37,334 nucleotides of DNA, taken from NCBI GenBank assembly GCA_000697335.1, contig JNEM01010363.1, forward strand, positions 1 to 37,334. The letters run 5' to 3'. The position numbers were made by a program, and so were the translations under genes. This DNA comes from Conidiobolus incongruus B7586. Its lineage: Eukaryota. Below, one piece after another: positions 3,748-37,026 of the stretch. Position 1 is the first letter of the stretch; every line of letters starts with the position of its first letter. Under the pieces are notes generated by a model. It was given only the letters and a program-made list of their open reading frames with translations. It ran no database searches and was not told the DNA's origin.

Positions 3748-3964
3748 GCTCACTCAAACAAAATTAAATACTATTTAATTAAACATATTGATTTTATTGA
3801 AATTTTTTAATAACATGGTTAATTTTTCAAAGAAATTCAAAATATTATAAGTTTAAAATATTAAATTGTTTTATTAAACATATATTGATATTCAAAACTT
3901 ATATATAGTTGAAATTTAAAATATAAACATACTATTATAATTTGATATAATTGAACTGTGAAAT

Positions 3965-4745
3965 AAATGTATATAACTCGATTTTGTAAAATCAATTTAT
4001 TAGAAATATATCAAGCATTAATAAATTATTCAAGCTAAGTATGCTATCACCGTTCGTGGATATTAATAATAAAATCCTAAATAGAACAGAAAATGTGTTA
4101 ATAAATCGAATAAGAATTAATATAAAATTTTAAATAGAGAGATCATATAAAATGAGCAAATAGAGTATAGAATCCATAAAACACAAGAGCAAATCTTTAT
4201 AATTTGAGTTAACAAATTATTGTTAAAGGCTTCAATACAAAAAATGAACCAGTATTTCAAATCAAATCCATTGAACGCCAATATTTAGAAAAAGAAAAGT
4301 TCTATCAACTCCAAGAAAGAATTAATAGAACATAAATCTTGAAAAGATTCGAATAAAATAAGAAAAATTGTCAAATAAAAACTGAATCAATTTAAATTTG
4401 ACGGTAGTTAGATAATTAATTTTGCATTGGTAGAATTCAATTATCAAAATCATTTCAAATTCACCACGTGAAAATCAAGTATTATAGTTCAAGCTAACAC
4501 AAGAGCGAATCTTTATAAGAACATGAGTCCTTATTGTTGACTTGAAATACTCGATATCACTTATGCAAAACTAAATTCATCTAAAGTGACAAATATGGCA
4601 AAATGATTTTGAATCACTTTGATCATCAAAATGAGTCAAAGCAATAATGCGTAACAAGTATCACGCATGAACGGATTAGGGTTAGTAAATGGTATATAGT
4701 ATACCATCGAACAGGGATGTGATACATAGAAATACTGGCTCTGGT
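3965..4745 (-). ncRNA. Candidate telomerase RNA (TER/TR); 5' end not defined
   Basis: Minus strand: template CUAACCCUAA (4685-4676) lies 3 nt after an 8-bp hairpin (4707-4689). Two P5/P6/P6.1 three-way junctions (4538-4496 and 4224-4180) each contain A-AAGA-UUYGC-UCUU-G. Candidate H box AUAGCA (4047-4042), hairpin and ACA (3970-3968). Many helices pair through G-U only on this strand. No ORF. Confidence 0.8.
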
Positions 4746-5061
4746 AGCTCAGAGTTTAAATCATTTGGGTAAAATATTGATACGAATTCAAAAAATCAAT
4801 ACTTACATTAATGGAATCTATAGAATAAGCATTAAAATACAAAGTTCATATTAAGTGGATATAATATATATTGGTTACCATTAGATGTTTGTGCACCAAA
4901 GCCTAACCGAATCAAATAAAAATTAATCATAGAACAGTTGTTAGAAAATAGTATCTATGATTAAAATTTGAAAAACAAAATCAGGATCTGGTAATATTAT
5001 TGATTTTGAAAAGTTCATGTTGAATTCTATTAATATGTATTAGTGTATTTGTAGTGATTGA

Positions 5062-6325
5062 TCATTGTTCTTTTTCTTCAAGTTTTAGATCTTTCATTAA
5101 TTTGTTCAGAGATTCTGCTTTCAAAGCTTGCTCTGAAGCCTCCTAAGATAAAATTAGAATATTAATATTGGTATTAAAAATTTCAATACCTTTTGCTTGA
5201 TTCGTTCTAATAAATCTTGCTTATAATCACTAGATCAAACCAATTAGCAAGTTATATTATGGAAATAATATTTAAAAACCGTACGTTTCATATTCTTCAG
5301 CAGCTTCATTTACAGCTTTCATGAAATCATCCATTCCGCTTCCTGTAACAGATGAAACTCCAACAACCTAAAAAAGTTAAAGCATGTATATTGTCTTAAA
5401 TTGATATATGAATACCTTCAAATGTTGGTAAAATTCATCCAAAACTAATGACATCGAATACATAAATGTGGACATATAAGTTTGATCTTGTTCGATATCA
5501 GCTTGGAACTTTTGAAAATCTTGCATCCAATCAACAGCGAACTGATGGTCTTGTACGTCGGTTTTATTAAAAACAAGAATAAAAGGTAATCTTGTTTTAT
5601 AAAGAATACTATACAAAGAAATTAGGACCAATCATAGATATTTTAAGAATAATATTACCTGCAAGCGTAAAGCATATTGGACATAAAAGTAGCAGGACTA
5701 GTAGTTCTAGGGGTATCAATAATATAGGCAATAACAGTAGGATAGGAAAGCGCTAAGCTTTCAGTGATAATGGCACCAGAAGCAGACCATGTAAAAATTT
5801 CAATTTGACCAGGAGTATCAATCAAAATATGGCTAAGGGAAATAAATAAATAAATATATATATATATATATTGAGAGATATAGTTCTAACTTACTCAAGC
5901 TTATCTTCTTTCTTTTGAATAATGTCGAGAACTTGTTCGAATTTAGTAGTAAACAAGTTAAGACTGGTTAAGATGGCTCCATTAGGACCTAACCCATATC
6001 TGCAAAAGTGAGTAAATGAGCAAAATAAAAACATATATTATATTTACTCTTTCATAACGACTTTATAATTAACGGTATCTCTGATATCCAAGTTAGGTTT
6101 ATAAGGGACATTATAAACAGCAGGATCCAAGTTAATAATATAGGGATTTTTATTAGTTTTTTGTTTGAAATAAGAATTAATTCTCTAAAAAAATATTTAA
6201 TAAAAGTGTGATAATATTTTATATAGTAATAGTACTTGATTAAAGGTAGTTTTGCCTGACCCTGCCATACCAATAGAAATAATACAGACAGGTTTAGATG
6301 TTGCGTTGGAAGTAGATTCAGACAT
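5062..6325 (-). CDS. GPN1: GPN-loop GTPase 1 (Npa3/XAB1); multi-exon
   Basis: ATG at 6325. Spliced motifs [11 protein letters not shown] (P-loop), [32 protein letters not shown] (GPN loop), [47 protein letters not shown]. Ends [12 protein letters not shown], with TGA at 5064-5062. Confidence 0.95.
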
Positions 6326-6530
6326 CGTGTGGTATTTAAGAATCAAACTAATTGAGTCAAATAAATTGATGATTAATCTAATTAATTAGCCCATTTATAC
6401 ATAGTTTAATAAATATTAAATGTTTCATAAAGATTATGGGATATTAGTTTATTCAAATAATTTATCATCATTTAATAATTTTGCTTATTCAATTAGTAAA
6501 TACATCAATCCCAAAAATTATATATTTATA

Positions 6531-7509: not shown

Positions 7510-10341
7510 ATGGGCAGAAAATATCCTCAAAGATTTAGCTACACTCCAGCCAATTCTGAATTAAAAGAAATTCCAGATAAGGTTAATTCGTCAACTGGAC
7601 TATTGAATGACGTAGAATCGGAGAACCCTGAAAATAAACTACGCTCACGTCCTATACAAAATTTAATTGGTATGAATAGCTCTAGACCGATGAGAAACTC
7701 CTATCCAGATGTTTATTCACGTGTCAATCCTCCAGCGACAGAAAATGACAAAATTTCCCCTCAGCAGCAGGTATATCATCAATTATGAAATATTAATACT
7801 GTATTCATATGTAACAATAGCTAAGAAGACTGTCATCAATATTACTAGATCAAAAATTATCCAGCAGTGATTTTACAAGTTACCAACTGGGAGTTTCCAA
7901 CAATTCGGATTTAGACAAATATGCAAATGGCATTCGCTCCCCTGAGTTGCTACAATCTATATCACTGATGGCCAGTATGAGGCTAAATCAATTGCAAAAA
8001 GGCGAGAGACCACCAACTCCCCAAGCGCTCCTTCGCCAATTAGTCAGAGCCATTAACTCTGAACGGTTAGCAGACAAAAATGAAATACAAGAAACTGTTC
8101 GAAATACATCACATACTGCTATTTCCCAGAAACTAACAATATCATCTAAAACGATTGATGTCAGCGATAGCAGTAGCGATAGTCCAATCGCCTTTAAGAT
8201 AGACGACTTTGATCCTTCAGCTTATAATCATCAAGTTGACAAGCTAATTGACGAGATCCCTAATATAAGCTTAATAGACCTTGAATCAATAGAAAATCTG
8301 GAAGCATACTCCAATATGAACATCAGTCACCGCTCCTTGAGAGATATCAATATTGAAGTTCCATCCTTACCCGACCACGATCTTAGTGAATCCAATAATA
8401 TTGATCAATATTTTAACAACTCTTTGAACACCGATCAAGATCTAGACAAGCTATTTCTCAAAGATGCGCTTCCCACCCCCGAGCGAAAATTTATTGACAT
8501 TTCCGACCAATTAACAGTCAATTCAAGTTTTGTCAACTCCAGTATTGCACAGGATCGAAGTTCAGTCGCAGAAAATTCCAGATTATCTATTAATGACTTT
8601 CCGGACCCTAATGTTGGCACATTCAGCCTATCTCTAACCGACCACGATGAGCAAATTGTGCAATATAATGATCTAACATCAGTTTCAGTGGGGCTTGATT
8701 TAAAGGAACCTGATGATACTTCCAATATGCCAGTCGTGGACTTGGAGGAAGATAAGAGCAAATCAGTGGATCTCTCGATGCTTGACAAGGCATTTATTCA
8801 GACCCCATTCAACAATCAATCTGGTTTGGACATATCACTTGACTTGAAAAATGAACTGGAGGGATTGCAGCACGAAATTGAATCAAACATTAATGATCTT
8901 GTAGTCCCTGAAGAATTAAGCCCTCCTCCTAACGTTGAAACTAGTCAAACAATCGACCAATTGATTCATACCAAGGAAGATGAAAAATCAGAATCAGCCT
9001 TCTCAGTAGATAATACTCATCAAGATGAAGCTAATCCACTTTTACCCGAATATGAGCCAGAATTGAAAAATCATATTCCCGATCAATCTCTTGATCTTTC
9101 TGAACCAATTGGAGACATCACTTCCGACTCTATTGATCAAAACATTAAATCCGACTTACAACCTCAGTCAGAGCAGGGTCAAGAAATTAAATCTGACGGC
9201 TCAACAGAGCCATCAATCGAACCAGAGCCTGAAATTGATGATGCTGTTCATAATGAGGAAAACGAAAAATCTCCAGTGTCAACAAAGTCAAGCCCCGCTT
9301 CTGAATCAAGTGAATCTTCCGATGAAGAATCTACTATCGATTTACCAGCCCAAAAAATTGATCAAGATCCAGATATTGATCTACCCAGTGTTTCTGAAAC
9401 TTCTGAGACAGCAGCTTTAATACATCCGCAAATTGAAATTGATGCAAGCTCAATAATTGAATCCAATGAACCAACAGACGCGATTGAGGAAACCCCCTTG
9501 ATAGATCAAACAAACAATACTGAAGTAGTCGCTGTATTGGAATCAGATAACCTAATTGAATCAAATAAACTAGATGCACTTTCCAATTCAACTCAAGATG
9601 CAACTTTATTAAGGTATATCTTTTTATCACATTTTCCATTTATTGCTTACATATTCTTAGTGTCAATCCCCCTGTTTCACCCAACGCTTCTTTTACCGAC
9701 AATTTGGGTGAAATACCCAATGAGAATATAGATGCTGTGAGCAAGGAGAGTGATATTTCTGATGGTTTTATTGACATAATCCGTGATAGTTCGACCAAGC
9801 CAATTTTATCTCCCGTTTCACCAGGCTCAGTTCCTACTCTTCCTACATTACACACCTTTAGGAAACAACGCAAGATTGATTTTAATCAAATTTCTAAAAG
9901 TTCTGCATCACTGTGAGTTAGATATTTTGAATTAATATTTACTGAAGCTAACTCAATTTTTAGAAATAACTTGCCTGCTTCGCAAGTAAAATCACTTGTA
10001 CAATCAATGGCAAATACCAGGATATCCCAGGCTACATTAAATAGTTTTTTATATGCTACAGATAAATATTTTGAACAAGTTTCTGGAGATTTGTTATCCT
10101 ATGCTAAACATGCTCAAAGAAAGACGGTCAACGAAGAGGATGTTTTATGTTTATTTAAAAGGTATATACATGTGTTACATGTGTTATAACATTGATAATA
10201 ACCTTGAAACTTAGACAAAATAGGATTAAAAACCCTGAGATGAGTGATTGGATTAGTTTAGCTCAAAAACAACTCCCAAGGGATTTATGGGAGCCTTTAG
10301 CTGAAGCAACTAATCCATCAAAGCGAAGAAAGAAGAACTAA
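7510..10341 (+). CDS. CENPT: CENP-T/Cnp20/Cnn1-like inner kinetochore protein: long acidic disordered region plus C-terminal histone fold
   Basis: Exons at about 7510-7770, 7821-9612, 9661-9912, 9964-10161 and 10215-10341 join in frame. C-terminus LPASQVKSLV...TDKYFEQVSGDLLSYAKHAQRKTVNEEDVLCLFKRQ...LAQKQLPRDLW is a CENP-T histone fold. N-terminal TPQALLRQLVR resembles the conserved CENP-T TP.xLLR helix. Confidence 0.8.
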
Positions 10342-21929: not shown

Positions 21930-24163
21930 ATGAATAAACTACATTTAATAGAAACTGAGTATTATAATTTATTACAATCTGATAACTCTGAAAATGATAC
22001 CAAGTTAGAAGAATTAAGGATAGAGTAATAATGCGATACTATTCTATGCTTTTATATTTTAATAATATTATATTAATTTAGATTGAGCGAGATTTACTTT
22101 GATCTTATAGTGGACAATGTAAATTCTAGTCAAATGTATAATTTTGAGGAAAGATGTTGGAAAATTGTGTTTTATTCACATTTAACCAAATTAAGGAGCT
22201 CATCACAAGTATATTATTTGAATTATTTTTTACATTCAATATTAATTGATCGCAATAGGATTCAAATGAGATATCAGAGCAGGACCTCTCGCTTCAATTA
22301 AAAGATTGGTTTTATTTCGGACTAGGCTATTTTAATTCTCTATTCTTATATATTGGTAAATCCAATAATGTGAATATTAATTCCTTTCCTTTTGAGCTAC
22401 TTAAATCCAAAGAATCAAAGCTAATTAACTTAGCTGAATCTTTGCAAAAATGCTTAATCAGTTTAGGGAACCTACATCGATACCAAATCCCTGCAGCAGA
22501 TCCTTCTTCAAATGGCTTCGAATCCGATCCTAATTTTAAACAGGCTGAGCAATGCTATTTAAGATCATCATTTATCAATCCTTTAAATGGGCGTGCGTAT
22601 AGTCAGCTCGGTATTCTAAATGCCAATACTCAATATCCTGTAAAATTTTTATTTTACTATTCTCTTGGACTGATTTGTGAGAATTCATGCATTATATCTG
22701 ACAAGAACCTTAAATTCATCCTCAACAAATATACTAATCATAGCCAACCACCTCAGGATGCGAAATCGAGTATATTGGTGCTTGAATATAAAATGATTGG
22801 GTTCTATGATCTAATAACCTGTCAAAATTCATGGGACCTTATTATTGATCGCGTCAAGAAATTTGGTCCGATATTTGTCGAGGATATGGAAAATCGTGCT
22901 TCTGATATTGATTCATTAATGGAAGAAACGTATTCAGATCCCCACTGGTCTGAAACCATATTCCACATCGTCATCATTCTTCTCTTCAATTGCTGGCGAC
23001 TAGCTCAATTTAAGAAAGATTTGCCCAACAACACACCATCATTTTGTATGGATATCCTATTCAAGATCCAGTATCACTGCTTCAAGCTCTCTATCAGAAC
23101 TATGAATTTGCTGATAGAAGATATTGGATCCAATTCCAGCTCCAAATTAGATTTGGTATCTATCTTTAGTGATTTTTGGATATCTAATAAGGAGCTGTGT
23201 TTCAGATTCTGTGAAGATAACACTGTTAAAGCAGAACTGCTCAACTTTATCATTAAAATTTCCAAGATATATAACTCGCTTTATCACATACATATGGGAA
23301 AATCTCAACTGAGTGTCGATGAACTTAAAGAGTTGCATCGAAGACCTTCTCGCCACGATTTCATTGTATGGGGAGTTCTCCCGTTAGCCAACTGCCACCG
23401 TCAGTTGGATGCCAACTATAGTACATTGACCAACAATGACTCTTTGGCCACAATGATTCTCATTGCCAGATGGTTTCAAATGGTCAATTCAGTGCATCAA
23501 TCGCCTGAATTCACTCTTTCATTTCCAGTTAATGCTCAGCTTCTTACCATAGGACACCAGAACCATGCAAAAGCACGTAATAAAGTGAATGATATGATGG
23601 TTAAGATGGCTGAATTAAGACTTCAGGACCAGGTAGAAAAACTTGAGAAAATGCTGTTGAAGAAGATTCCCATCCAAATCATACCCGATGCTCATGTATT
23701 ATTAACGCATTTCAATTGGGTAGAAGATTGGATTAAAAGGGCTAAAGTTCGAGTGATTATTACGAAATCAACTTTAGACGAGTTGGATGAGCTAAAAAAG
23801 GGGACAGACAATGTGAACTTTCAAGCTAGGAATATTGTTCGAAAATTCGATGCTTGGGGTACTAAGTACAATAAAGACAGAATATTTATTGATGCATCTG
23901 ACTACTCCAACCTCAATTTATTGGACTCTAAACACATTACCAAGGTTGAACAAAATGACCAATTGCTTGAAAGTTTTGAAAAATACCAATATTTATTGAA
24001 TGAACTGGCTAAAGTCACTCAGGATGTCAAGCTGAATGTCACGAGCAAATGGGAGACTTATCTGACTACCGACTCTCCTGCGCTCCTCGAATTAGTCGAC
24101 ATCTTTGGTCTTCAAGGTATTAAGGCAAATAAGGTGATATCAAAATTGAAGCAAAATCATTAA
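21930..24163 (+). CDS. EST1/SMG5-7 family protein with 14-3-3-like TPR domain and C-terminal PIN domain (SMG6-like)
   Basis: ATG at 21930; introns at about 22025-22081 and 22209-22258. Motifs FEERCWKIVFY, CLISLGNLHRY and AEQCYLRSSFINPLNGRAYSQLGIL (EST1/SMG TPR). PIN motifs IIPDAHVLL, TLDELDELKKG, QARNIVR, QNDQLL and LTTDS. Confidence 0.85.
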
Positions 24164-27558: not shown

Positions 27559-29760
27559 TTTAGAACCATAAATAATAATGAAAGTTGAGGTTGTAAGTGT
27601 GATATCTTGTTTACAGTAATTGGACTTTGACTATAAAAAATCTGATTAATGACTGTAAAAGGTTCTAATGTTTAAATATTGTTATTTTATTTTATTCATA
27701 TGTAATATTTAAATGATATATTAAAACTTCAAAAATAACTGTACCTAAATATAACATTGACTATATAATTTTATGTTTATAATTGAACAAAAATAGTGAA
27801 CTTTAATATAATATAATAATAGGCATGTTAACTAATCGATTTATCCAAATTTTATAGTTGTGTATTTTTGGAATATCTGAATCATTCATTGATTATCTGT
27901 AAAAACTTGGATTAATATTAAAATATTTTCGGAACATTATGAAAATATTACCATTTAAAACATTTTATTGTTTAATTATACTCCAATTGTTTTTGATTTT
28001 AGTTTGATTTTTTAAATTCTGTCATTCTCAAACGTAGAATTATTTCAGTATTATTCCTGGCTTGAAAATGAAAATACTTAGTTAAGTGAAGATCAATGAT
28101 GTTTAATTATTAAAATACTTATATAAATATCTTTGCATTTCAACTGTATAATTACATTTGTATAGAGTGTTTAATAGAACTAATAATAAAACACCAATAA
28201 TATTTAACATAGTATTCAAATGATTACATTTGCGCCCAGAAAATATTACATACTATTCATATGTGTTTTTTTTCACAACATTTTGAAATGCTAAATTGAT
28301 ATAACCTCATATTTGATTTTATTAAGCTAAAATGCTTAAAAAACATTATATAGAATATAAATTATAACCTGTTATACATTAAAATCAATGAATTTTTCTA
28401 TAATCTTTTGAAATCATTCTACTAATTAAAAATATGAATTATTTTTTTAATTGATGAATCTAAAATTATAGTTTTAAAAATTGCAAATTTCTAACTTACA
28501 TATCAAAGATTTTAACTTTTACCTAATTCCACTGTATTAAATAAAAAAATGATCAGTCAGCACATCCCTATGTCAATATTTTTAATTTGTAATAAATGAT
28601 TAAATATATACGTGATAAACGTTTTATATTCCTCAATCTTCTAGAAGCTAAGATCCTCTGAATAACTCGTTAATTAGTTGGCAGCAATACGATTTCCCTA
28701 ATACAAAAAATATAATAAAATCTAGAATGCTTGGCTTTGTAAAATATAAGGTATTACCATTTTTAGAGATCTGAAATATAAGTTTTATTATTCCGAAATC
28801 ATCTAAATTTAGATATATAGCGAAAATCGATCAATGATTTTTTTCTAATGTATAAATTCAATATTATCAAAAATTTAAACTTATAATTAATATAATTAAA
28901 ATTTGTACAGTAAGCGATATGACGAGTGGTATTTCAAGGCAATGTTCTCCAATTCTAGTTTCCTATATTGTTTTCTAGACTTATAAAATATGGATAAAAA
29001 TAAGAAATAATTGGGACATAATTAAAAAAATTAGAAATTAGTATAAAAAGTTTAAATGATTTTAGTTGTTTTATATTACTATTCCTCTAGATTATTCTAG
29101 TCAAGAGGTTCACCTGAATACATGTCTATAGTTTTTTGAAATGTTCAACCTTATTCTAATAATTTAATCATCTGGCTAACATAATTCATCCATTATCTTT
29201 ACCAATCTGAAAAATTAATTTTAGATTGCCAATCAGATAAAACAAATTACGGACCAAAAAATAATCTCAATATTTAGTATTTTAATAATTCAGAGTTACG
29301 GACAAAGTTAACCAAAATAAATTTGTAATAATGGATAATAACAGTAGATTCTTGAAATAATTGCACCCATCAGTTTAAAATTGATTAGTGTTTGATATTA
29401 ATTTTCTTTGATTTATGGCTTATTCTTTAATATACACGTTATTTATTAAAACTTTTCTGTCGATTTTGTTTAATTTCAAATATATATGATTTATTTCAAT
29501 TGGATAACTAATCTGTTTCTATTGTTTTTTTTATATATATTAAAATACGGGTATTTAAAAATCTAACTAATAAGGATATTAGGATTTGGATTCCCATTAT
29601 TAGTTAATTATCCATAACAATTGCATAAAAAAGAAACCAGTTTTTCAAAAATTATATAAAAAGGTCATCAATCATCATTGTTAACCAAGAAACCGGCAAA
29701 TAAATTTTTTATTCACCTTATTTCTAACAAAGTATATATTCCAATACATCATCAATTTCA

Positions 29761-30942
29761 ATGACCAATTTAACTCCGTTCAGACTTGAAAGATTCTTTG
29801 CCAAATATGAATTCAAGACAAAGTATCTTATGTGTACCTCTGATCCCGAATCAATGACTATCAAAGAGCTCTTTGATTTGACTGGCAATAGCGAAGCTCT
29901 TTGGGAGGAGTTTAGCAACCTTCCACTTTGTTACACTGAATCGAGTGGCCATCCCGAGCTGAAACAACTCATTGCTAAGCTTTATCATCCTGGCAAAATC
30001 TCTGATCAAAATGTTTTGGTCCATACTGGTGCAGAAGAGGTGATCCTCACCGCATTTACAGCTCTTGTGAATCCACAAGATCACATCATTTGTGTCACTC
30101 CCTGCTATCAATCCTCGGTAGAAGTTCCCAAGACTCGCGGTTGTGAGATTGACGAATGGTCCGTAGAACTTAAAGATGGTAAATATATTCTGGATTTCCA
30201 CAAGTTAGAGGCCTTGATCCGTCCCAATACAAAATTAGTCGCTATCAACACACCTCACAATCCTACTGGCCTTCACTTCACTAAGGAGGATCAAGATCGC
30301 TTGGTTAAGATTTTGGAGCCCAAAGGAATAATATTAATAGCTGATGAGGTGAATCGACTTTCCGAACATGATCTAAGTTATAGAATTCCCAGTTTTGCAG
30401 ATGTATATTCTAATACTGTCTCAATCGGTGTTATGTCTAAATCATTGGCATTGCCAGGTATTCGTATTGGCTGGGCTGCTTCTCAAAGAACTGATATCCT
30501 TGATCAAATGGCTACCATTAAGGACTATACCACTATCTGTAATCCTGCACCCTCTGAATTCCTTGCTATTGTAGGTTTACGCTATGTTGATAAATTACTA
30601 AACAGGTTATTACCCATCTACCATCACAATCTTGGTCTCTTGGATGAATTTTTTGCTCAACATCAAGATAAATTCGAATGGATTAGACCTAATGCAGGAA
30701 TTGTGGCCTTTGTTAGGCTCAAGCCCGAATTTTGGAATAGCTTACTTCCTGGAGATGGTCCATTGGCTGAACGATTCTCAAAGGATGTGTTAGATAAAGT
30801 TCAAGTCCTTGTTGCTCCTGGATCACAATTTGATGCTTTGGATAATGGTGAATGGAGCGATTATTTCAGATTGGGCTATGGCCGTAAGAATTTACCTGAG
30901 GTGCTGAATGAATTTAAACGCTATATATCTTTGATTCAATAA
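29761..30942 (+). CDS. PLP-dependent aminotransferase class I/II (capreomycidine-synthase/aspartate aminotransferase-like subgroup), intronless
   Basis: 393-aa single ORF. Motifs PFRLERFFAKYEF, YTESSGHPEL, TGAEE, INTPHNPTG, ADEV, GVMSKSLALPGIRIGW (PLP lysine) and FRLGYGR. Confidence 0.9.
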   Translation: MTNLTPFRLERFFAKYEFKTKYLMCTSDPESMTIKELFDLTGNSEALWEEFSNLPLCYTESSGHPELKQLIAKLYHPGKISDQNVLVHTGAEEVILTAFTALVNPQDHIICVTPCYQSSVEVPKTRGCEIDEWSVELKDGKYILDFHKLEALIRPNTKLVAINTPHNPTGLHFTKEDQDRLVKILEPKGIILIADEVNRLSEHDLSYRIPSFADVYSNTVSIGVMSKSLALPGIRIGWAASQRTDILDQMATIKDYTTICNPAPSEFLAIVGLRYVDKLLNRLLPIYHHNLGLLDEFFAQHQDKFEWIRPNAGIVAFVRLKPEFWNSLLPGDGPLAERFSKDVLDKVQVLVAPGSQFDALDNGEWSDYFRLGYGRKNLPEVLNEFKRYISLIQ

Positions 30943-34493: not shown

Positions 34494-35321
34494 ATCGGAA
34501 TTATTGATTTATTTAATGATTTATATATATTTAAATCAATATTATTTTTAATAAAAATAGTTTCATTTTATTTCTTGTTTTATTGAATTATTTAATTAAT
34601 TTAATTTTATAATAGAATATCCTATTAATATATTAACTAATGATTTTTAATTTTTTATTTAATTTTACCTTATATTCTTATTTATTTTAAGACACAATTA
34701 AGCATTATATTTAATCTCTTGATTGAAATATCATATATCATATATTTTAAATTTATTGTGTTAAATACTCTGAAAAAATTTGTGAATTGCTGAAGTGTAT
34801 ATATTATTAATCAACCTAGAATCAAAATGTATATTTATCTGTAATACACACATTTATATTATTTTATATATTTTTACATCAACTTCAAACTAGATTTTAT
34901 TGTATTGTAAAAATATTGTAAAGGCTAAAATATAAGTAATAATAAGGTTAATTCTTTATTAAAAAGTAATTATAGGGAATAAATAGCAAATTTCAAAGAA
35001 TAAATAAGATTATATATCAGAGCTCTTTAGACAGTTTAGGTACAATGGATAATTAAATAATTGAGATTAATGAAAAAGAAAATATTTCAATTCATATTAT
35101 TTTAGTATATTAAATTTTAGAATATATATATATATATATATATACCAAAAATACAACTTTAAATCTAGATAAAGCAAAAATGCAATGTAAAAGAGAATGA
35201 AATAATAAAATAAATAATTGTGGAATAGAAGCTGATTTGCAAATGAATTTAACTAGAAAAGTTAAAATAAATATGTAAATATATCAACTTATATTTTGGT
35301 ATCAAAATGTGGATATATAAT

Positions 35322-35395
35322 GCTCCCATACCTCAGCTGGTTAGAGGCTGGTGCTAATAACACCAGGGACGCAGCTTCGATCTTTGTTGAGAGCA
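35322..35395 (+). tRNA. tRNA-Ile(AAT), probably degenerate or a pseudogene
   Basis: GCTCCCA-TA-CCTC-AGCTGGTTA-GAGG-C-TGGTG-CT-AAT-AA-CACCA-GGGAC-GCAGC-TTCGATC-TTTGT-TGAGAGC-A. D and anticodon stems are intact; there is one C-A mismatch in the acceptor stem and the T stem lacks the G53-C61 pair. Confidence 0.85.
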
Positions 35396-37026
35396 TTTCT
35401 TGAATATACCATTTATATATTATTTTCATTATTCATTTTAATATTATTTGTAATGTTTTTGAGTAGTAATGGGTATAAGTGTTTTAATATTGGTTTGTAT
35501 TTTTGATACAGTTTATAACCAAACAAAATATATATTAACTACATGTTATAAACATAAGTCGTAATTTTATAAAATTTCTTCAATTAGCCTCACTTTAAAA
35601 ATACATATTTGTAGTTTATATTAATAATATAATGCTGACTATAAAATGAAAATTATTGTTTGTTTTTATATAATCTTTTTGCGATTATTCAAATCTCTAA
35701 AGCAAACTCTAATACAATATTAAAATAAATATAATTATCTAGTATTAATATCCTTAAAAGTTTGAAATAATTATGTGGTGAATATGTAATACCTAATTAA
35801 AAGTAGCAACAGAAATTATAATCAAACGTGATTCATTTATATAATTTAGTCAATTATCAAATGAAAAAATTCGATTCAAACTAAATTCAGAAAATATTAA
35901 ATTTATTTTAAAGTCACACATATTTACATAAATACTAATGAACCATACTAACTCAAAATTACTTAAATCAATTGCATCAATCAAGATAAATATTATATAT
36001 TAAAACTATGTTACTAGTGTTTAGCTTTAATCATGTATTAATTAATTAGATAGAATATATGAATTTTTACTTAGCACTAATGTCTACATTAAAGCAGTGC
36101 AAAATAAATAGATTGTTGTTTACATATTTAAGTTAGTAACACTCATCTCTATAGTCACTTCATTTTAACAGAGCTATCATTAACTTGATGGATTGATAAT
36201 ATGTTTAATGAAAATTTAAAATATTGTTGATATCATATTCAAAACAATACATTAACTACATGGTATATTTGGAAATTGATAGATGAATTCCTATAGCCTA
36301 ACTTGTATTGTGCCATAGTTCTTAAAATAAATTTATAGTAAAGATCCTCCTATTTACTAGCTCCGATTGATGATTTAGACACTTACATTGATAACAAAAT
36401 CAAATAAAAGATTTGTTTAATTTTATATGTATAATAGCCAAATTTGAAATATTGTTTATATCAATCTCTTATACTTTGATATACAAAAATATATTAGCTT
36501 TTTATTAAATATCTTTAAAAAAATACGAATTGACAAATTATAATATCATTCCACAATATAATTTTGTAAATATTCAGTTTTTCAATAAGATAAATATTAT
36601 TACCATTTTTATAAGAAAATTTTGCCAAATGACATAACTAGAAAATATGAGACTTTCTAATGATTAGCAATATGGTTGATTATATTGTTATAATGATAGT
36701 TGATTAGTTTTTCAAAATTGAATCCTAAAGTATTTCAAACTGTTGTCGCGTGATTTGATGGAAAAACGAAAAGGGAATTATTTGGAATTTTGGATTTTCA
36801 TTAGTATATTGAAAGGCAAAATTATGAAATTCAGTAAATTGACGTAATTTTCAAAATAAAAGAACTTGATTGGAAAGAAATCAGGAATAATTTTCCCATA
36901 GTAACTAGATTTTCAAAATTAATAAGTGAATAAAATCTGAATAATATATTGATTTCAATATATAAAAGGAACTCAAGACAAATCTGATTTTTTATTAAAT
37001 TTAATTAAATTACTATTAATATCAAA

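Follow-up and report, generated by a model that had tools for sequence, protein, structure and literature searches.

Two P5/P6/P6.1 junctions in a probable telomerase RNA of the fungus Conidiobolus incongruus

A two-domain plan, with one template core and one distal activator, has been described as universal for telomerase RNA (PMC9564094). In the DNA studied here (37,334 nt of Conidiobolus incongruus, called the window), a preliminary description had claimed two motifs of 43–45 nt with the P5/P6/P6.1 layout of this activator, also known as CR4/5. The question is whether one telomerase RNA carries two such junctions, and what two of them could do. Both motifs were present letter for letter on the minus strand, and the layout claimed for them was found in each: a closing P5, a short P6, an A, a 4-bp P6.1 with a 5-nt NUNGN loop, and a G.

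4496..4538, minus strand: junction copy 1 (4538-4496; P5, P6, A, P6.1 with NUNGN loop, G), borne by a 16-bp stem (4555-4474) within the enclosed core
4180..4224, minus strand: junction copy 2 (4224-4180), 3' of enclosing helix 1, the usual place of CR4/5

The P6.1 element of copy 1 is A-AAGA-UUCGC-UCUU-G, and that of copy 2 is A-AAGA-UUUGC-UCUU-G. Studies have defined P6.1 as a 4-bp stem with an NUNGN loop (PMC3592445) and have described an unpaired A in P6/P6.1 junctions (PMC8096264). A 19-mer pattern common to the copies, and derived from them, had two matches against 0.06 expected, and 0/100 shuffles reached two. We also used a structure descriptor, in which the junction A and the NUNGN loop were fixed and pairing was required for P5 (4 bp), P6 (at least 7 bp) and P6.1 (4 bp); it was composed with the motifs known, and the P6.1 definition in PMC3592445 supplied its sequence terms. 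When both strands of the 37,334 nt were searched, the descriptor found just these two sites, with a mean of 0.03 and a maximum of 1 in 60 window shuffles. After 3000 local shuffles, one site was found in three and two sites in none. The concern that the motif might be a dispersed repeat was not borne out, since the two sites in the window both belong to this locus and no third locus appeared in four whole sequencing runs, where 45-nt matches can be missed.

When each copy was folded in its own arm, all three helices formed together in 843/1000 sampled structures for copy 1 and 763/1000 for copy 2, and the minimum free energy (MFE) structure of the isolated 43-nt copy 1 held P6 only. In folds of the whole RNA, the pair probabilities of copy 1 were 0.75–0.99 in all three, whichever RNA ends were used. 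Copy 2 depended on the ends, and it held in one fold (0.68–0.89) and was displaced in two (0.04–0.23). The two junctions are approximately 300 nt apart, on different arms, and each folds separately.

Both motifs lie in a gene-free gap, and no stop-free frame of more than 55 codons was found in 3800-5060. The nearest elements are as follows.

4123..4790, minus strand: candidate telomerase RNA gene, approximately 500–670 nt with approximate ends, MFE z of -7.3
5062..6325, minus strand (the same strand as the RNA): upstream GPN-family GTPase gene, with seven introns read by eye and Pfam ATP_bind_1 on 2/2 exons tested

For the RNA region, 0/20 shuffles were as low in MFE as the real sequence, and its z was the lowest of 30 tile-strand folds; the next value outside that tile was -3.2 (a rough scale, from 6 shuffles each). 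The spacing between the GPN stop and the RNA core is only 320 nt (4742-5062, minus strand), and the RNA may possibly be processed out of the 3' region of the GPN mRNA, as in Ustilago. The genes of the window are intron-rich, AT-rich and fungal. The best named homolog of its AMP deaminase was that of Neoconidiobolus thromboides (71%), followed mostly by Mortierellaceae at about 67% among the 120 homologs listed. Judged by these best hits, the host would be an early-diverging, probably entomophthoralean fungus.

Elements of the kind expected of a telomerase RNA core were found or predicted around copy 1.

4676..4685, minus strand: 10-mer resembling a template for TTAGGG (1.7 repeats), mostly unpaired (0.58–0.99)
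4688..4708, minus strand: template boundary hairpin of 9 bp, on the 5' side of the template at a spacing of 2 nt, pair probability 0.77–1.0
4729..4741, minus strand: 5' strand of core-enclosing helix 1, 13 perfect bp with 4258-4246
4246..4258, minus strand: 3' strand of core-enclosing helix 1, pairing with 4741-4729
4715..4723, minus strand: 5' strand of core-enclosing helix 2 (predicted, weak), 8 bp with 4269-4261 in the MFE structure, -5.9 kcal/mol
4647..4668, minus strand: 9-bp hairpin 3' of the template, in whole-RNA folds
4583..4620, minus strand: candidate pseudoknot, with PK1 at 4620-4613/4590-4583 and the PK2 5' strand at 4600-4591
4276..4286, minus strand: candidate 3' strand of PK2, 6 nt before the enclosing helices; helix 4600/4276 has a probability of 0.46–1.0
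4408..4584, minus strand: long arm carrying copy 1, with a 20-bp helix (4584-4563/4427-4408, -16.9 kcal/mol)

Apart from the template at 4685-4676, neither strand of the window has a match of at least 9 nt to the TTAGGG repeat. Template and hairpin together occurred in 0/5000 shuffles, and the 10-mer alone in 3/5000. A TTAGGG telomere repeat has been shown for Mucor, which belongs to another phylum, and the telomere repeat of the present lineage was not found in the portions of the literature searched. No helix of the region is stronger than enclosing helix 1 (-17.7 kcal/mol; pair probability 0.82–1.0). Because the template, the boundary hairpin, the enclosing helix and P6.1 stand in the right order and on the right strand, we believe that the locus is very probably a telomerase RNA. 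The candidate pseudoknot has the expected place, a contiguous junction, a U-A run and a bulged U, and its loop 1 has no U-rich 5' end; among the best 25 of 154 relaxed candidates, no convincing canonical triple-helix pseudoknot with a U-rich loop was found.

CR4/5 usually lies beyond the template core on its downstream side, as copy 2 does and copy 1 does not. The place of copy 1 within the enclosed core is a stranger feature than the doubling that was noted first. In the folding model, copy 1 would occupy the downstream loop of the candidate pseudoknot.

The comparison of the copies bears on how they arose. Within a 23-nt block that they have in common they differ once, and a 5' block of 8 nt is also shared; their cores agree at 31/32 positions, the sole change falls at a free loop position, and their flanks show no homology (p 0.25–0.83). 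The distal P6 differs between them (GGAC/GUUC versus UUUG/CAAA) yet pairs in each. This had been described as four compensatory pairs, that is, internal covariation, a claim that was not upheld: MAFFT aligns the two equally well by placing two gaps, with a 5-mer in common. Because the gapped alignment fits as well, the difference may reflect one or a few events, not four independent changes. A distinct centre flanked by two identical blocks would argue against simple gene conversion. Without selection, 32 sites would carry at most one change with a probability of 0.05–0.34 for a divergence of 15–7%, and selection on both copies is only suggested.

A second version of the locus was found in four runs (X1–X4) of a single sample; the window itself may derive from this sample, so that the runs are not independent. 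In all four, a second contig for the GPN gene and the RNA region (3933-6400) was present at similar depth, approximately 82–88% identical in the aligned pieces, and the two versions collapse to a single sequence over 5280-5702. The genome thus appears to be hybrid, heterozygous or duplicated, with a homogenised tract. In 4/4 runs, the second locus joins 4481 to 4531 without letters between, so that 4482-4530, 49 nt of copy 1, are absent, and there is a 4-nt microhomology at the joint. Sequence on both sides of the gap is retained, and among the 60 positions of that piece that are not listed, at most five differ. In copy 2 of the second locus, the 5' strand of P6 is unchanged (8/8), and that of P5 differs at 2/4 positions. 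Of ten changed pairs with both partners visible, read by hand, six stay paired, two of them by a double change, and four are broken; in hairpin 4647-4668, three of six changed pairs are kept and three broken. Substitutions are not depleted at paired sites (10/72 paired versus 6/35 unpaired, in two listed zones). We found no second-locus matches to P6.1 of copy 2 or to the template, which is not counted as evidence, as short pieces can be missed. One of the double changes that keep pairing is at pair 4581/4411, in the arm of copy 1. A smaller core closed at 4554, with copy 1 outside it, was rejected, since its closure would cross the 20-bp helix of the arm, in which this double change lies.

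In all likelihood, the second locus is a partly decayed sister that lost copy 1 by deletion, and such a loss means that both copies likely predate the split of approximately 15%. The copy 1 region may instead have been inserted in the lineage of the window, and differences near piece ends are unlisted. The lack of copy 1 in the sister also bears on a rather unlikely explanation, namely that copy 2 is the working CR4/5 and copy 1 a young or structurally tolerated duplicate without a TERT role. Copy 2 occupies the usual position, and the near-identity of the copies may just mean youth, with a neutral probability as high as 0.34. However, copy 1 has a 16-bp carrier stem of its own, unrelated to the flanks of copy 2, and its P6 differs yet is fully paired; the sister looks decayed, with 4/10 changed pairs broken, so a loss there says little.

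The sister bears equally on the very improbable view that the candidate locus is no working telomerase RNA; it would then be a structured RNA of a different kind or a dead paralog, and the real gene would be the second locus or a third. The Rfam telomerase models gave no match to the locus, even at E 10, the candidate pseudoknot has no U-rich loop, and a second locus exists whose template was not seen. The insensitivity of Rfam for so distant a lineage would be expected. Against this view, the telomerase elements stand in the correct order and strand, and the window copy has perfect helices, whereas the other locus has broken ones. Moreover, 4120-4770 was matched by only two records per run in 3/4 runs and by three in the remaining run.

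Two further searches concern relatives. Runs X5–X7, which carry a related label, match GPN exons only and not the RNA region, and are uninformative on the RNA. A metagenome scan with a 17-base pattern gave at least 117 loci, among which none had a P6 of at least 7 bp together with P5; as candidate two-copy relatives these matches were rejected as chance matches, having no junction, and one of them had a template-like word only.

The extent of the mature RNA decides how many copies it would contain, and two Sm-like sites are relevant.

4236..4245, minus strand: Sm-site-like A-U6-G (4245-4238) between the core and copy 2, weak, overlapping a possible 5' splice site
4123..4129, minus strand: second and weaker Sm-like site, with four U only; the pattern is common (2.7 per kb)

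In S. pombe and Ustilago, telomerase RNA's 3' end has been reported at such an Sm/splice-type site, and A-U6-G at 4236-4245 could mark the mature 3' end here. The window, read on both strands, contains the pattern AT{5,6}GTA six times, and the possible 5' splice hexamer is that of the last GPN intron. A mature RNA ending there would hold copy 1 alone. It is unlikely that the junction was relocated in this way, with the RNA ending at about 4238, copy 1 as the sole working junction and copy 2 as a leftover in the trimmed 3' part. Copy 1 is the stabler copy in the folds, and the RNA shortened at the Sm-like site folds unchanged. On the other hand, every junction position of copy 2 is intact, the G of the Sm-like site differs in the second locus, and 5' splice sites are degenerate in this genome, with seven different hexamers in seven GPN introns. 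With both copies or with copy 1 alone, the mature RNA would be unusual either way.

In this study, we give a little less than an even chance to the explanation that these are intact copies of one junction in a likely telomerase RNA, produced by internal duplication and both kept by selection as interchangeable docking sites for one TERT. Studies have shown that P6/P6.1 binds the RNA-binding domain of TERT, that it requires the A of the junction and the U and G of the loop for activity, and that the element is active in trans (PMC3592445, PMC8096264); in Neurospora, a 39-nt P6/6.1 piece is active in trans (PMC3592445). The downstream pseudoknot loop tolerates large insertions (PMC3592445). An internal duplication probably doubled one P5/P6/P6.1 junction within the likely telomerase RNA gene. 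By analogy with known telomerases, TERT would hold the template core and wedge its RNA-binding domain between P6 and P6.1. Because P6/P6.1 works even in trans, copy 1 on its long internal arm could reach TERT; either copy would then activate the enzyme, and the loss of one would be tolerated. Several results count against the interchangeable sites, namely the Rfam result, the Sm-like site before copy 2, the instability of copy 2 in 2/3 whole-RNA folds, the lack of a canonical pseudoknot, the second locus without copy 1 and the failure to find a two-copy relative among the at least 117 metagenome loci.

Simultaneous occupation, with two TERTs per RNA, or with copy 1 as a decoy or assembly site tuning activity, is the hardest of the alternatives to credit. 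Two complete, separately folding sites lie on different arms, and a 15-bp alternative helix (4551-4537/4265-4251, minus strand, -16.3 kcal/mol) would compete with the copy 1 stem and the enclosing helix and could switch both off. However, the probability of this helix was 0.0 in all three ensembles, there is just one template, and human telomerase typically has one TERT per RNA (PMC7618144). An improbable extension would be that both activation domains work, one of them in the template-pseudoknot core, with one RNA holding two TERTs or switching docking geometries, in what would be the first telomerase RNA of Zoopagomycota.

Like the telomerase RNA of Neurospora crassa and other Pezizomycotina (PMC3592445), the candidate has a TTAGGG template, an adjacent boundary hairpin, which is of the fungal type (PMC4993307), two core-enclosing helices (the second a weak prediction here), a short P6, a 4-bp P6.1 with an NUNGN loop, and an insertion in what would be the downstream pseudoknot loop. 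In contrast, the Neurospora RNA is described with one junction, outside the core, whereas two are present here, one of them inside; the present RNA is about one third as long, and the U-rich pseudoknot loop of Neurospora was not found in it (PMC3592445). The CR4/5 of vertebrates agrees in the A, in the 4-bp stem, in U2 and G4 of the 5-nt loop and in the final G, and the RNA is of similar overall size (PMC10035886, PMC4993307). Vertebrate RNA differs in its single CR4/5 and in its boundary, a P1 tether and not a local hairpin (PMC4993307); it also differs 3' of copy 2, where no stable H/ACA-like hairpin folds in our candidate. The RNAs of Ustilago and Malassezia are likewise compact, lie downstream of a same-strand protein gene, and have a putative Sm site and a CR4/5 with P6.1, but they belong to Basidiomycota, are described with one CR4/5, and show or suggest read-through from the upstream gene (PMC9564094, PMC12506658). 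Two repeats of 90 bp occur in U. maydis ter1, and the available text of PMC10035886 does not describe them as junctions. Plant paralogs (PMC12133305) arose by duplication that gives redundancy, and a second locus is likewise present here, but whole genes were duplicated there and one domain within one RNA here.

According to the available text of a 2025 paper, the known fungal telomerase RNAs are those of Ascomycota and of some Ustilaginomycetes (PMC12506658). For Lichtheimia, one unconfirmed ciliate-like candidate has been proposed (PMC4133162). In the literature searched, as judged by titles and the starts of abstracts, no duplicated or tandem CR4/5 was found, and no telomerase RNA of Zoopagomycota appeared among the papers listed for telomerase RNA outside Dikarya. 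On sequence grounds, the feature is real, and it rests on one genome. If the reading is true, two activators, or a sole activator in the core, would show how freely an essential domain is copied and moved, and with a two-junction RNA the stoichiometry of RNA to TERT could be tested directly. Such an RNA would also be a compact candidate from a fungal phylum for which we found none described in the literature searched.

Other features of the window were observed as well. A distance of 18 kb separates the candidate telomerase RNA from a gene for a protein with an Est1 DNA/RNA-binding domain and a PIN domain (SMG5/6-like; 22259-24163, plus strand), and this closeness is probably a coincidence. 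An acidic low-complexity frame of 636 codons (7821-9731, plus strand) is without a Pfam match. A class I/II aminotransferase gene without introns (29728-30942, plus strand) is surrounded by intron-rich genes, and a tRNA-Ile(AAT) lies at 35321-35396 (plus strand).
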